Made by a program: the position numbers and the translations under genes | The notes under the pieces: generated by a model | The model's database searches: none | What the model saw: the letters and a program-made list of their open reading frames with translations, nothing else | What the model was told of the DNA's origin: nothing | Shown here: one piece after another, positions 2,268 to 21,948 of the stretch | Layout of the letters: each line of letters starts with the position of its first letter | How positions within the stretch are numbered: the first letter of the stretch is position 1 | From: Parcubacteria group bacterium | GTDB lineage: Bacteria; Patescibacteriota; Minisyncoccia; UBA6257; UBA11618 | Reading direction: 5' to 3' | Length of the DNA: 64,000 nucleotides | Assembly (NCBI GenBank): GCA_943357895.1 | Contig: CALRGO010000002.1 | Location: 25,926 to 89,925, forward strand

Positions 2268-3620
2268 TTGCCCACGCTTAAAGTCCCGCCGCAAAACATC
2301 GAGGCCGAAGAGGTTGTGCTAGGCGCGATAATGATCGACGCGGATGCCATTATCAAGGTGACGGACGTCCTTGCGCCCATTGATTTTTATTTACCCGCAC
2401 ATCGGCTTATTTTTGAGACGCAGGTTGCGCTCTTTGAACGGCACCAGCCGATAGACATTGTAAACCTCACGAACCGCATGAAAGAGGATGGTACGCTCGA
2501 CCGCGTAGGCGGGGCTTCGTACCTCTCTACCCTCATTGAGGGCGTGCCATCGTCTTCACACATCGTCCACTACGCCGGCCTCGTGAAAGAAAAGCGGGTA
2601 CTTCGCTCTATTATCGAAACGGCGGCCGAGGCGACGGAGGCGGCATTCAATCCGCAAAAGGAAGTCGAGTCCATTTTGGACGACGTCGAGCAGAAGATGT
2701 TCGCCATTTCGCAGGGGTCCGTGCGGCAGAAGTTCGTAGCAGTTAAGGACGAGCTAAAGAACGCCTATGAGCGAATTGAGCGCCTGCAAAGCGGCGACGG
2801 CGCTTTGCGCGGCGTCGGTACCGGCTTCCGCGAACTCGACAGTTGCCTTGGGGGGTTGCAGAAGTCGGACTTGGTAATCGTGGGTGCGCGCCCGTCTGTT
2901 GGTAAGACTACGTTCGTTATGGATATTGCGCGGCACGCTGCCATTAAGGAGGGGGTGGTTGTTGGCGTATTCTCGCTTGAAATGTCGCGCGATCAGGTCA
3001 TTGACCGCCTCATAGCGGCCGAATCGAATGTGGCTTTATGGCGGCTCCGTAACGGCAAAATCCAAGACGATACGGAATTTCAAATGATACAGGCGGGGCT
3101 CGACGTTCTTTCCCGCGCGCCGATATTCATAGACGATACCGCCGGCCCCACAATGCTCCAAATCAAGTCCATGGCGCGGCGGCTCCAGATGGAGCACGGG
3201 CTTGGGCTCCTCGTCGTCGATTATCTTCAGCTCATACAGCCGCGTACTAATAGCGATAATATGGTGCAGCAGATTACGGAAATCTCGCGTGCCCTGAAGG
3301 GCCTTGCGCGCGAACTAAATATCCCCGTGGTCGCGTTATCCCAACTTTCGCGTGAGGTGGATAAACGCGAAGTGAAGATCCCCCGCCTTTCGGATTTGCG
3401 CGAGTCAGGCTCGATAGAACAAGACGCAGACGTTGTTATGTTTTTGTACCGCAAGGACCGCGATAAGCTGAACCCCTCGCCCGAAGAGCAGAACACGGCG
3501 GAGGTGATTGTCGCTAAGCACCGCAACGGCGCCTTGATCAACACGAAGGTTAAGTTCGACCCCGACCGCGTAAGCTTTAGGGATATCGACCACGTGCACT
3601 CGAACAATAACGGTTTTTAA
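2268..3620 (+). CDS. dnaB: replicative DNA helicase DnaB
   Basis: N-terminal IEAEEVVLGAIMID motif, Walker A GARPSVGKT, RecA-like C-terminal domain; 450 aa. Confidence 0.9.
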   Translation: MPTLKVPPQNIEAEEVVLGAIMIDADAIIKVTDVLAPIDFYLPAHRLIFETQVALFERHQPIDIVNLTNRMKEDGTLDRVGGASYLSTLIEGVPSSSHIVHYAGLVKEKRVLRSIIETAAEATEAAFNPQKEVESILDDVEQKMFAISQGSVRQKFVAVKDELKNAYERIERLQSGDGALRGVGTGFRELDSCLGGLQKSDLVIVGARPSVGKTTFVMDIARHAAIKEGVVVGVFSLEMSRDQVIDRLIAAESNVALWRLRNGKIQDDTEFQMIQAGLDVLSRAPIFIDDTAGPTMLQIKSMARRLQMEHGLGLLVVDYLQLIQPRTNSDNMVQQITEISRALKGLARELNIPVVALSQLSREVDKREVKIPRLSDLRESGSIEQDADVVMFLYRKDRDKLNPSPEEQNTAEVIVAKHRNGALINTKVKFDPDRVSFRDIDHVHSNNNGF

Positions 3621-3621
3621 T

Positions 3622-4197
3622 ATGCTCCCCCGTTCTATACAGAAATTCATATCCGCCTTTGCCGCCTTGCCTTCTATCGGGCCGCGACAAGCGACGCGCT
3701 TGGCGTTTTATTTAGTGTCGTTAGGTTCGGCTTCGATAGTCGACATTGCGGATGCCGCGCGGGGCTTGGCGGCGCTCTCGACCTGCCCCGACTGCTTCTT
3801 TTTTTCCGAAGGGCCGGTATGCCCCTTCTGTGGTAACCCTGCACGGCGGAAGGATGTGCTAGCCGTCGTTGAGCGGCCGACAGACGTTATAGCAATAGAG
3901 GCAACTCGCAAGTTCAACGGCGTGTATTTGGTGCTCGGCGAACTTAAAAAGACGGGCGCATTGCAGCCGGAGCAGAAGCTTAAGCTCGAGCGTGGCAAGG
4001 CGCGCGGCCCGTTTAAAGAAATACTCTTAGCGCTCGACCAAACTACCTACGGCGACTTTAACGCGCAGACAATTACGAAAGAGCTTTCGGGCGTTACGGA
4101 AAAAATAACTCGCTTAGGCCGCGGCATCCCCACCGGCGGCGAAATAGAATTTGCCGACGAGGATACCTTGGGGAGCGCTATCGAGAAGAGAAGTTGA
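3622..4197 (+). CDS. recR: recombination protein RecR
   Basis: HhH N-terminus (PSIGPRQATRLAF), C4 zinc finger CPDC...CPFC, Toprim domain; 191 aa. Confidence 0.9.
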   Translation: MLPRSIQKFISAFAALPSIGPRQATRLAFYLVSLGSASIVDIADAARGLAALSTCPDCFFFSEGPVCPFCGNPARRKDVLAVVERPTDVIAIEATRKFNGVYLVLGELKKTGALQPEQKLKLERGKARGPFKEILLALDQTTYGDFNAQTITKELSGVTEKITRLGRGIPTGGEIEFADEDTLGSAIEKRS

Positions 4198-19283: not shown

Positions 19284-20015
19284 CTACACAGACTTCTTTT
19301 TTTCAAGTGCTTCGAGTGCCTTCTTTGCGGCATCTACTTCTGCCTCTTGCTTTGAGTAGCCAACGCCTTCGGCTACGAACTCGTTTTCGAAGTAGACGCT
19401 TACCTTGAATACCTTGTTATGCTCCGGCCCCGTTTCGCTTATTACGCGGTAGCTCGGCGTCATTTTTTTACTTGCCTGCGTCATTTCCTGCAGGGTGCTC
19501 TTGGGGTCGCGGTGGCTACCATTTTTCATAATCTCGTGCAGATTATTCATAACGAAGTTCGCTACGAAGGTGCGCGCCGCCGTAAGGCCGCCGTCTAAAT
19601 ATAATGCGCCTATCAGCGCCTCCATGGCGTTTGCGATAATCACTTCGCGGGCGCGGCCCGTGTCTTTGGCTTCGCCGCGGGAGAGGAGTACGGACTTTTC
19701 GAGCGCGATATCGTTACCCGCCTTCGCGAGCAACTGGTAATTCACGAGCGCGGCGCGAAGTGATGTGAGCTTACCTTCGTCTTCGTCGGGGAAGCGGTTA
19801 TATAATTCCTCGGTTACCGTAAGTTCGAGTACCGCGTCGCCTAAAAATTCCAGCCGTTCGTTGTGCGGCGTTTCCCACGCGGGGTTTTCGTTGCGGTATG
19901 AGCGGTGCGTTAAAGCCTCCTTTATAAGGGCTTTGGTAGTAAAAGAATAATTGATTGTTTTTTCGAGGCTTGCGCTATTCACTTTTGGGTTGTTCTGCGG
20001 CGGGCGTTTCCCCAT
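19284..20015 (-). CDS. rnc: ribonuclease III
   Basis: [13 protein letters not shown] RNase III signature, C-terminal dsRBD; start may be GTG at 19982 to avoid 41-nt overlap with nusB. Confidence 0.9.
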
Positions 20016-20436
20016 TAACCGCTTCGAGTTCTTTGAAGATAGTCCCCAAAACGCCGTTGATAAATTTACCGGAGTTTGGGCCGCCGTAGTTTTTAACTAT
20101 TTCGATGGCTTCGTTGATGGCGACCTTGGGTGGCACTTCTTCAGGGTTTGCGTAGAGCAGTTCGTAGAGGCCAATGCGCAGGGCGTTGCGGTCGATTATC
20201 GCGATGCGTTCCAAGGGCCATTCGGGGGCTGCCTTTGTGATAACGGCATCAATCGCCTCTATATGTTTTTTTACGCCTTCGGCAATTTTACGCGCAAATT
20301 CGGGCTCGTCGATCCCCGGGGCAAATTCCTCGAGGTTGCGGTCGACGATCTTTTCTAAGTCGTCCTTCTGCCCAAAAAAATCCCATTCATAGAGGGACTG
20401 GAGTACTACGGAGCGCGCTAATTGCCGAGTTGCCAT
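19975..20436 (-). CDS. nusB: transcription antitermination factor NusB
   Basis: Start set at [20 protein letters not shown] (canonical NusB N-terminus); upstream ORF extension to 20700 is non-homologous and overlaps rpmF. Confidence 0.8.
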
Positions 20437-20449
20437 ATGAAGGCAGTAT

Positions 20450-20620
20450 AGAACCCATCTCAAAAATAGTCTAGGAAGACATCCACGCCGCTTTCGGTTA
20501 TTTCCGGCTGCGAATCGCGATTTTCTCCTCGGAATACCTCGGTATTCCTCGTCGAAAAATCCCGTTTCTCGCTCGTAAATACCACGAAACCGCCTGCGGC
20601 CTATTTTTGAGATGGGTTCT
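20450..20620. repeat. MITE-like element: 20-bp perfect terminal inverted repeats flanking 131 bp, immediately 3' of rpmF
   Basis: agaacccatctcaaaaatag (20450-20469) is the exact reverse complement of 20601-20620; internal palindrome ggaatacctcggtattcc (20532-20549); 13-bp direct repeat accgcctgcggcc at 20589 and 20735. Confidence 0.5.
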
Positions 20621-20621
20621 G

Positions 20622-20789
20622 CTACTTCTTGCGGGAAGGGTACGTGCCGCACTGGGCGCACGCTTTGTGGGGAACAATCGGGCCTTTGCATTTTGCGCAT
20701 GCCGCCATGTTCGTTTTCTTCATGGCTAAGTGGGACCGCCTGCGGCCTACTTTGCCCTTGCTGTGATGCTTTACTGGTACGCCTCCCAT
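20622..20789 (-). CDS. rpmF: 50S ribosomal protein L32
   Basis: Unlisted 55-aa minus-strand [58 protein letters not shown]; basic N-terminus plus CxxC...CxxC zinc ribbon typical of L32. Confidence 0.65.
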
Positions 20790-20811: not shown

Positions 20812-21393
20812 TTAAGTAGCCTTTAGTATGACAAGATTCTTGATAAACGTCAAACGGTGCAGGGGGCATGGGCCGTGGCGCTTAAGCGCCTTTATATGGA
20901 CTGCCGTGCCGTAGCCCTTATTCTCTTTAAAATTATAGGCTGGATGGCGCTTATGCATGCGCTCCATGTAGGCATCGCGCGCGACTTTAGCAAGGATTGA
21001 GGCGAGAGCGATGGCGGGGATTTTCTCGTCCCCTTTTATTATTGCCTTCTGTGGGATGGTTTTTGGGAGCTTTATTCCCGCGTCGAGCAGGGCGGGGGTA
21101 TTGGAATTACCGGTTACTTTTCTATATGCGCGATACGCGGTACGGTTTGCGGCTGCCGAGATATTTATTGCGTCTATGGTCGCAGGCGCTCCGCGTGCGA
21201 CGGCGTATTTTATTTCTTTGCGGGTTTTGATCCATGCGCACCATGCCCCACGTTGCTTCTCGGTAAGCTTTTTGGAGTCACGCAGTGGCAGGCCGGAGCT
21301 TTTAAGATCGACGTTGTCTGGCAGCGCAACGCAAGCCACGACTACCGGCCCTGCAAGCGGCCCGCGCCCCACTTCGTCTATGCCGATTATCAT
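20812..21393 (-). CDS. rnhB: ribonuclease HII
   Basis: MIIGIDEVGRGPLAGPVV canonical RNase HII N-terminus. Confidence 0.9.
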   Translation of the reverse strand: MIIGIDEVGRGPLAGPVVVACVALPDNVDLKSSGLPLRDSKKLTEKQRGAWCAWIKTRKEIKYAVARGAPATIDAINISAAANRTAYRAYRKVTGNSNTPALLDAGIKLPKTIPQKAIIKGDEKIPAIALASILAKVARDAYMERMHKRHPAYNFKENKGYGTAVHIKALKRHGPCPLHRLTFIKNLVILKAT

Positions 21394-21519: not shown

Positions 21520-21948
21520 ATGGCCGCCACAATCCCAATGCAAAAAGACAACTTGGCATCGCTACCTGAGCTCACTCCTTTACCTGTTCCATTCAACGGA
21601 AATCTAGTTAGGTACATATGTTTTCCATTAGACTTAGGAAGAGAAAAAAATACGCGAACGGTGTGTCATGTGCTAACGCGAAGGCTGGATAAGGTTGGTG
21701 TAATGGATACTGATAAGACCGAAAATGCCATCCTATTCGGCTCTGATGAGCCTAGCGACTATTTTGTTCAAGTCTCGTCATATGCTCTTAGTGAGGCTGA
21801 AAAAACGCATCCGAATCCGGAAAGCGTCGTTTTTCAAATCCATCATGGCAAGCAGTTAGGAAAGTACTACCCTCCGTTTTTTCAAAAAATTCTTTTGGTG
21901 GTTGATGCGGAGGGAGTTACACATCTTACTAATCTTGCGGCTTGGTAA
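21520..21948 (+). CDS. hypothetical protein
   Basis: 142 aa ORF preceded by candidate promoter; no recognisable domain. Confidence 0.45.
   Translation: MAATIPMQKDNLASLPELTPLPVPFNGNLVRYICFPLDLGREKNTRTVCHVLTRRLDKVGVMDTDKTENAILFGSDEPSDYFVQVSSYALSEAEKTHPNPESVVFQIHHGKQLGKYYPPFFQKILLVVDAEGVTHLTNLAAW

Follow-up and report, generated by a model that had tools for sequence, protein, structure and literature searches.

The element described here, 171 bp long and located at positions 20450-20620 of a 64-kb window (the whole 64,000-nt stretch of contig CALRGO010000002.1, from a Parcubacteria group bacterium, that was analysed), is very probably a non-autonomous DNA transposon, i.e. a type II MITE (miniature inverted-repeat transposable element). 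Its terminal inverted repeats (TIRs) are those of a small insertion sequence (IS) of the IS5 family, of the NF033580 type, with a transposase of 250-260 amino acids (aa) that is produced with a -1 frameshift. The initial annotation, made from the sequence of the window, had already described a MITE-like element, and this description is borne out: a family of copies exists at other loci, the site is polymorphic for presence and absence, and autonomous ISs possess the same termini. What was not foreseen is the IS5-family parent, the occurrence of the termini across phyla, the finding that a direct repeat noted at the time is not a target duplication, and the presence of the same insertion, conserved to an unusual degree, in one distant relative.

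Anatomy of the element

The element occupies 171 of the 185 nt that separate the stop codon of rpmF from the start codon of nusB. Its ends form a perfect inverted repeat (20 of 20 bp complementary). Arm 1, AGAACCCATCTCAAAAATAG, lies at 20450-20469 and is the 3' arm on the minus strand, the strand in gene sense; arm 2, CTATTTTTGAGATGGGTTCT, lies at 20601-20620, is the exact reverse complement of arm 1, and has as its counterpart in the parent IS the final transposase codons together with the TGA stop. Between the arms lies a non-coding core of 131 bp (20470-20600) with imperfect middle and apical helices, whose purine-rich strand, recognizable by GAGG/GACGA motifs, is the minus strand. The core contains an apical stem-loop, GGAATAC-CTCG-GTATTCC (20532-20549), a palindrome of the form ATA(C/G)-loop-(C/G)TAT. 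Repeats, core and palindrome are all as first annotated, in the spacer between nusB and rpmF and 1 nt from the rpmF stop codon.

No transposase gene is found in the 171 bp: tblastn with the IS5-family transposase gives no match, and the open reading frames (ORFs) within the element are mechanical ones of 41 and 59 aa. Within the 64-kb window only the two arms themselves match the 20-mer when up to three mismatches are tolerated (0 expected from 100 shuffles), and nothing credible is added at up to five mismatches; the window thus holds a single copy of the element.

The parent insertion sequence

The parent IS was found with a short BLAST query, consisting of the arm only, against annotated plasmids. 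Plasmids of Leptospira weilii yielded many arm matches per record, always edging genes annotated as 'IS5 family transposase'. On one of them (L130), an 865-bp IS begins after a T with AGAACCCATCTCAAAAATGCC..., ends before an A with ...GGTTTTTGAGATGGGTTCT, and encodes WP_085986074.1; its terminal 18-mers, between the same T and A, are AGAACCCATCTCAAAAAT and ATTTTTGAGATGGGTTCT. The transposase of 256 aa is read from two frames, orfA and orfB, joined by a -1 frameshift at the slippery site A AAA AAA G. It contains the Pfam domains DUF4096 (PF13340, 8e-27) and DDE_Tnp_1 (PF01609, 6.5e-21) and scores 238.7 bits against the NCBIfam model NF033580 (cutoff 110), which identifies it as an IS5-type DDE transposase. 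The protein belongs to a very large, cosmopolitan family, with 7,923 homologues at E <= 1e-20 among 8,000 candidates scored. The best 120 share 55-68% identity with the query, except for two Leptospira proteins at 84-86%, and belong to Actinomycetota, Chloroflexota, Myxococcota, Desulfobacterales, Verrucomicrobiota, Acidobacteriota, Bacteroidota and Nitrososphaerales.

For four homologues from four phyla (57-67% identity) the surrounding DNA was examined, and each lies in an element of 832-933 bp with a T before it and an A after it. Their termini follow the pattern AGAA[C/G]C[C/T]ATCTCA[A/T]AAAT, as seen in Verrucomicrobiales (AGAAGCCATCTCATAAAT), Saprospiraceae (AGAAGCCATCTCAAAAAT) and Anaerolineales (L135; AGAAGCTATCTCAAAAAT and AGAACTCATCTCAAAAAT), while the Desulfobacteraceae copy (L132; ACAAGC[C/T]ATCTCAAAA) is more diverged and deviates at 4 of 18 positions. 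The TIRs of L130 and L133-L135 are near-identical to those of the window element: arm 1 agrees with the terminus of the Leptospira IS at 18 of 18 positions and with that of the Anaerolineales IS at 20 of 21. All five autonomous ISs are flanked by T..A, and in all five the transposase stop codon falls inside the right repeat (...TTT TGA GATGGGTTCT), so that the proteins end in LLR[HLYN][FL]-stop. For arm 2 of the window, the counterpart is the 'N-Y-F-stop' variant found in the Anaerolineales IS, again with 20 of 21 positions identical, and both window arms are of this 'stop-codon', i.e. right-end, type. The 18-20 bp of the terminus are near-invariant across phyla, probably because they serve both as transposase binding sites and as the last codons and stop of the transposase. 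Outside the arms, no similarity was found between the 131-bp core and the interiors of these ISs; by the terminology of PMC10969869, the element is therefore a type II MITE.

A family of short elements with the same arm

The distribution of the arm was analyzed by looking for exact matches to the 20-mer among bacterial and archaeal genomes, each species being represented by a single genome; all counts of arms and elements given here refer to the matches listed. The 20-mer is not single-copy, but occurs in at least 119 stretches of contigs from metagenome-assembled genomes (MAGs) of at least six phyla, including Desulfobacterales (with many copies per MAG), several lineages of Patescibacteria, Chloroflexia, Bacteroidota, Kofleriaceae and Verrucomicrobiota; one match (L045) is the window's own locus. 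Binning error does not account for the matches, since contigs of 0.3-5 Mb carry some of them. The majority of arms are paired with a partner arm and thereby delimit hairpin elements of 39-377 bp with differing cores, at least 80 of which are distinct. The subfamily of the window is present at other loci as well (L081, L091, L101, L136, L137).

Of 126 arms, 107 have a T as the adjoining outer base. Once the elements are oriented by their purine-rich strand, the flanks become mirror images of each other, A-Y-T before the element and A-R-T after it, with T..A in 50 of 69 cases. Judged from these flanks, the target is palindromic and centred on TA. No gene or transposase recurs near the arms: the ORFs near solo arms, on both strands, are ordinary host genes, and an all-against-all clustering of 791 ORFs around arms gave no recurrent partner. 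One solo arm (L022) has a 40-aa remnant of a transposase C-terminus beside it.

The MAG CAYHXC01, labelled Saccharibacteria, contains at least seven copies of a 164-bp subfamily (L042, L068, L070, L079, L084, L085, L095) that differ by at most 1 nt and all lie in CTAG-like sites, with cT before and Ag after the element. To judge from this near-identity, they look like the product of a recent burst of activity in a Patescibacterial genome; within the ~64 kb examined, CAYHXC01 shows no transposase. At one orthologous site in two Desulfobacterales MAGs, L106 carries a 144-bp element (3509-3652) and L030 an internally deleted copy of 56 bp (1599-1654) in the opposite orientation, which indicates deletion and inversion of the core in place. 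Neither pair of loci that might have proven a TA duplication did so: the spacer of the filled and empty pair L028/L011 is too diverged, and L106 and L030 are both filled.

Some variants of the family are worth recording. A Chloroflexia MAG (L038, 6706-7404) contains a 699-bp unit within the same arms, the right one with 2 mismatches, and a DinB-like ORF of ~170 aa inside; it may represent either a derivative with a passenger gene or a pair of solo ends. In Anaerolineales (L135, 1033-1074), a mini-element of 42 bp consists of two arms around CAATTG, ~100 nt from a full-length IS. A single match to a viral contig (L129), the only viral one, was set aside as chance; it lies inside a coding sequence and has neither a T flank nor a partner arm. 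A BLAST search with the whole 191-nt region against plasmids and phages gave no match, under an E-value limit that masks bare 20-nt matches. In the searchable literature, 14-20-mers of the terminus had no match, and 11-12-mers matched only unrelated primers.

Filled and empty alleles at the rpmF-nusB junction

Contigs encoding a NusB identical to that of the window fall into two groups, one filled (the window, L001, L004, L045) and one empty (L002, L003, L005-L009). Where the empty group has TAG-GTTATACTGCC..., the sequence of the window is TAG-C-(171 bp)-ATACTGCC...; the junction without the element is TAG-GTTA-TACTG in L002 and, in the more distant relative L140, TAG-GCTA-TACTG. In the window, the T at 20449 is the flanking T of the TA target, forming T/A together with position 20450, and corresponds to the A after the element on the minus strand. 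The other flank is atypical: at 20621 the plus strand has G where the family consensus has A, so that the minus-strand junction reads TAG-C followed by AGAACCC. From nusB onward, filled and empty strains are 99.91% identical (3 differences in 3,476 nt), vs 95.8% for rpmF. Relatives with 77-89% NusB identity likewise have short, empty spacers, of 17 nt in L140 (TAG-GCTATACTGCC), 3 nt in L145, 7 nt in L146 and 32 nt in L147. A comparison of this spacer in related genomes, which the initial annotation had named as a check for insertion, therefore finds it empty in the L002-type strains and in all four of these relatives. The nearest named NusB homologues come from Harrisonbacteria/Paceibacterota.

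A metagenome scan with the apical core returned four loci. Two are copies of the subfamily elsewhere; the other two (L138 and L139) belong to a much more distant relative and have the same junctions as the window, including the atypical C. A 'recent insertion' at rpmF-nusB, considered at one stage, was revised since this relative shares the junction. Between window and L139, the identity at the nucleotide level is 81.3% for rnhB (60% at four-fold sites) and 80.3% for nusB (52% at four-fold sites), as compared with 94.0% for rpmF, 95.9% for the MITE (7 differences, both arms perfect) and 100% for the 74 nt upstream of rpmF. The tract of high identity extends over ~20940-20400 (~540 nt, ~95%) and decays at both ends into flanks of ~80%. 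Furthermore, the distances of rpmF are discordant with those of nusB: the respective identities to the window are 95.8% vs 100% in L002, 94.0% vs 80.3% in L139, and 85.1% vs 76.4% in L140. On the basis of these alignments, a single insertion with subsequent exchange of the rpmF-MITE block between lineages by homologous recombination is the simplest account and the more likely one.

Other peculiarities of the locus concern its neighbors. L002 lacks rnhB and a 142-aa ORF (21520-21948), so that dnaE adjoins rpmF and the locus has the character of a mosaic; a 32-nt stretch with a promoter-like site of rpmF, TTGACG-17-CATACT (20853-20825), is identical in the window and L002. All 10 differences in rpmF between window and L139 are at third positions, where 0 of 27 four-fold sites and 10 of 29 other third positions changed. 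This pattern may reflect strong codon preference in a small, highly expressed gene. At 83% NusB identity, L143 (~888-1000) and L144 (~91-203) carry an unrelated, AT-rich hairpin element of 113 nt with the apex ATACGGCCGACCGTAT in the rpmF-nusB spacer. Judging by these occupants, hairpin elements seem to land repeatedly at this junction.

Hairpin fold and covariation

On either strand, the whole element folds into one long imperfect hairpin (-81.3 and -73.9 kcal/mol; z = -7.1 and -7.7), and none of 200 shuffles is equally stable. Ten elements from the Patescibacterial subfamily to which the window copy belongs were aligned, each read on its purine-rich strand. The consensus hairpin has 58 pairs, of which the 20 basal ones are essentially invariant and 23, located in the middle and apical helices, are compensatory with changes on both sides. 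Paired cells amount to 90.7%, vs 32-50% when partners are slid by 1-3 columns, and 0 of 500 shuffles match the observed covariation. Even the closing pair of the apical stem covaries (CG in six elements, GC in four). Beyond the subfamily, the apical ATA(C/G)-loop-(C/G)TAT stem is present in 10 of 21 core-distinct clusters, vs 0.15 expected, among cores that share almost no 8-mers.

Motifs of the GAGG/GACGA type are confined to one strand (e.g. 10:0, 13:0, 11:0). Across the family, this purine-rich strand is sense to the neighboring genes in 8 cases and antisense in 12. Without an orientation towards genes, there is no evidence that the fold serves host transcripts in general, though the fold itself is conserved; a cis-acting RNA function for the entire family was dropped for this reason.

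Proposed mechanism and alternative explanations

According to the model that we favor, a full-length IS would supply the transposase in trans, which would bind the ~18-bp termini, excise the element and insert it at the TA within an A-Y-TA-R-T target, leaving T...A flanks. At the present locus, the insertion would have hit the TATACT hexamer in a 17-nt rpmF-nusB spacer, and the element would since then be co-transcribed with rpmF, nusB and rnc as a very stable hairpin. One insertion followed by homologous recombination of the rpmF-MITE block would explain why the window strain and one distant relative have it and closer relatives do not.

Several observations weigh against this interpretation. 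The left junction of the window copy is atypical, with C in place of T, so that the sense strand has C...A. No clean reconstruction of a TA duplication is obtained from the empty alleles of L002 and L140; the sequence agrees equally with TA duplication, with insertion into a split T/A, and with a 21-bp TIR that starts with T. By tblastn, no transposase of this family is found in the 64-kb window or at any MITE-bearing locus, and none of the best 120 transposase homologues is labelled Patescibacteria. Finally, the element is 96% identical in window and L139, while the flanking four-fold sites are at 52-60%, and its divergence is below that of the third positions in the neighboring rpmF; this could mean selection in place.

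The last point leads to the alternative that survives best, namely that a MITE was indeed the origin and was then exapted, i.e. that in this lineage selection maintains it as a structured RNA within the transcript of rpmF, nusB and rnc. It could, for example, act as an RNase III site that uncouples rpmF from nusB-rnc with feedback on rnc, or as a stabilizing 3' hairpin of the rpmF mRNA. We consider such an exaptation unlikely, and the same holds for selection on the element in place, on which we would place only a small share of our belief. Besides the conservation of the element with perfect arms next to genes at 80-81% identity, the nature of the seven substitutions speaks for it: three are at unpaired positions, one turns G.U into G-C, and the predicted fold is equally or more stable (-77.2 vs -80.3 kcal/mol). 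The perfect 20-bp base of the stem might, speculatively, be a plausible RNase III substrate, and rnc, which overlaps nusB, stands in the same gene string; the hairpin transcripts of Correia elements, which are MITEs too, are RNase III substrates in Neisseria. A broader version, according to which the folded element is itself functional as RNA or single-stranded DNA, either for its own mobilization or for the host as an RNase III-processed hairpin regulating rpmF/nusB-rnc, is doubtful to a similar degree. Behind it stand the features that these MITEs retain in different phyla through compensatory changes, namely the invariant 18-20-bp base, the apical stem and purine-rich internal loops on one strand. 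Against exaptation, one strain whose NusB is identical does without the element, as do four other relatives with spacers of 3-32 nt; the element is hence dispensable. The high-identity tract, which decays gradually, also takes in rpmF with its promoter as well as the 3' end of rnhB; this is what a recombination tract looks like, and the history of rpmF is discordant with that of nusB. The lack of orientation of the purine-rich strand across the family points in the same direction.

Much less probable is a MITE moved by another class of enzyme, be it of the IS630/Tc1-mariner type or a single-strand HUH enzyme (RAYT) as for REPINs. TA flanks and a CTAG-like target would suit IS630 equally well, so that TA flanks alone do not discriminate, and compensatory hairpin doublets with strand asymmetry recall REPINs. 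The arms, however, are identical to IS5-family TIRs at 18 of 18 and 20 of 21 positions, and these ISs have the same T..A flanks in five of five cases. Mirror-image flanks are expected of a double-strand DDE transposase and not of a strand-specific HUH enzyme, and the surroundings of the arms show no recurrent IS630-like or RAYT-like gene. Both hypotheses were abandoned after this test of flank symmetry and the match to IS5.

A native, ancestral cis-element of the operon – a terminator or 3' untranslated region (UTR) of rpmF, or a leader of nusB – in place of mobile DNA is hardly credible. It would account for a very stable hairpin present once in the window, placed exactly between two co-oriented genes and kept in L138 and L139. 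Yet close and more distant relatives have empty alleles, related copies, in either orientation, occupy unrelated loci across many phyla, and the arms equal the TIRs of an IS; the notion of a single-copy sequence conserved as the rpmF 3' UTR, raised in the initial annotation as the competing possibility, is thus contradicted by the empty spacers and by the copies elsewhere. The sense strand has no U-tract after the hairpin, so that termination is not expected, and terminator-like signals are at background level (2 found vs 1.2 expected). Rfam offers no family either: a scan of the whole window at gathering threshold returned two tRNAs only, and an E-value scan of 20400-20680 reached 20 bits at best, vs a gathering threshold of 70. 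An assembly artefact (a hairpin or chimeric join) can practically be dismissed: assembler errors can create perfect inverted repeats, but the identical insertion occurs in independent ENA, Logan and NCBI assemblies (L001, L004, L045), in L001 43 kb inside a 206-kb contig, and a diverged version is present in SXGR/SXGT contigs.

Gene setting and other repeats

All local genes are on the minus strand. Upstream of the element lie rnhB (RNase HII, 20812-21393, Pfam-confirmed) and rpmF (bL32, 20622-20789; Pfam Ribosomal_L32p, 5.5e-12); downstream, at a distance of 13 nt, follows nusB (19975-20436; Pfam NusB, 2.3e-33), which overlaps rnc (RNase III, 19284-20015, Pfam-confirmed) by 41 nt, and past rnc come rpsP, a KH-domain gene and trmD. 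A mechanical ORF of 241 aa (19975-20700, minus strand) spans the whole element in the frame of nusB. No sign of its usage was found; NusB homologues begin at the annotated ATG.

A weak promoter-like site facing nusB, TAGACT-17-TATACT, is located at 20445-20473 on the minus strand; it has 9 of 12 consensus matches, and three such sites occur in the region, vs 0.8 expected. The TAGACT hexamer is supplied by the element. TATACT spans the junction and is already present in the empty alleles of L002 and L140; the presumed target TA lies inside it, 11 nt upstream of the nusB start codon, and the T..A flanks would restore the hexamer.

A 13-bp direct repeat had been annotated just outside one arm and again inside rpmF. 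The sharing with rpmF stands, though the repeat really comprises 19 nt with one mismatch and its first copy (20589-20607) lies inside the element, on the core side, where it overlaps 7 nt of the arm. Because this copy is within the element and not outside it, the repeat is not a target-site duplication. The second copy (20735-20753, minus strand) encodes K-V-G-R-R-R in rpmF and is native, being present in the MITE-free L002 and L140. The copy of the element is mostly subfamily consensus, ATAGGCCG(C/T)AG..., found at the same position in L081, L091, L136 and L137 with no rpmF nearby. Capture from rpmF is rejected on these grounds along with target duplication, and we regard the sharing as mostly coincidence.

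The window contains another hairpin element at 15009-15208, ~740 nt from tRNA-Val (15944-16018), with a 24-bp perfect inverted repeat (CGAATCCGCGGTGCTATGGGGACC) and a 152-nt core. As had been annotated, the two elements are distinct; the termini of this one bear no relation to those of the rpmF-nusB element, and TA flanks are absent.

Significance

The element is of an ordinary kind, a MITE of a cosmopolitan IS5-family lineage with ends that are unusually conserved across phyla. Beyond the routine are the invariance of the terminus across phyla together with its explanation by coding overlap, the conservation of the hairpin architecture, and the unusual degree to which the copy at a Patescibacterial rpmF-nusB junction is conserved. 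The overlap with the transposase stop codon provides a concrete reason for the identity of transposon termini in distant phyla. The genomes of Patescibacteria (the CPR, or candidate phyla radiation) are small and usually called poor in mobile DNA; they do carry MITEs of this cosmopolitan lineage, and one MAG shows what looks like a recent burst. Members of this MITE superfamily can be recognized in metagenomes, for annotation purposes, by a simple marker, the 18-mer AGAACCCATCTCAAAAAT. With a hairpin of about -80 kcal/mol now upstream of nusB-rnc in place of a 17-nt junction, the locus can also serve as a natural experiment on the ways in which a streamlined genome tolerates such a structure or puts it to use. 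If the folded element were functional in its host, it would represent a domesticated, cross-phylum structured mobile element.

Comparison with known systems

Prokaryotic MITEs are defined as elements of less than 500 bp with TIRs of ~4-30 bp, no coding capacity, a stable stem-loop and a flanking direct repeat (PMC10969869). The window element agrees with such elements in its size, TIRs and absence of a transposase, in having copies at other loci and an IS with matching TIRs, and in its presence/absence polymorphism. NF033580-type IS5 elements such as the IS encoding WP_085986074.1 have the terminal 18-20 bp in identical or near-identical form and share with it the T...A flanks and the presumed TA target. 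Unlike the 171-bp element, they are 832-933 bp long and encode a transposase, and the element has an unrelated interior and two arms of the right-end type. In size, organization, frameshift and TIR length, the parent IS resembles the IS427, IS1031 and ISL2 subgroups as tabulated in PMC3196728.

REPINs resemble the element in being intergenic, inverted hairpin doublets with compensatory change; they are lineage-specific, have arms that are small palindromes, and are moved in single-stranded form by a single-copy HUH enzyme (RAYTs, PMC2817692). The arms of the present element, in contrast, are IS5 TIRs that are not self-complementary, its flanks are symmetric, and there is no recurrent neighboring gene.

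Tourist-type MITEs belong to PIF/Harbinger, a eukaryotic superfamily with transposases that are related to IS5. Like our element, they are hairpin-prone, share only the TIRs with an IS5-like DDE transposon, and use a short, A/T-rich palindromic target; unlike it, they are eukaryotic, produce a 3-bp TWA duplication and have unrelated TIRs.

Among bacterial MITEs, RUP of Streptococcus pneumoniae is linked to IS630, as opposed to the IS5 parent here, and no transposase is known for Correia or ERIC. Correia/NEMIS (Neisseria), ERIC/IRU (enterobacteria) and RUP are, like the element, 100-200 bp long with TIRs and TA flanks; they are also intergenic near genes, co-transcribed as stable stem-loops, polymorphic among strains, and accompanied by internally deleted variants (PMC2229807, PMC10969869). 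Their sequences are unrelated to that of the element, and each of them is confined to a genus or family, whereas the terminus described here occurs in at least six phyla.

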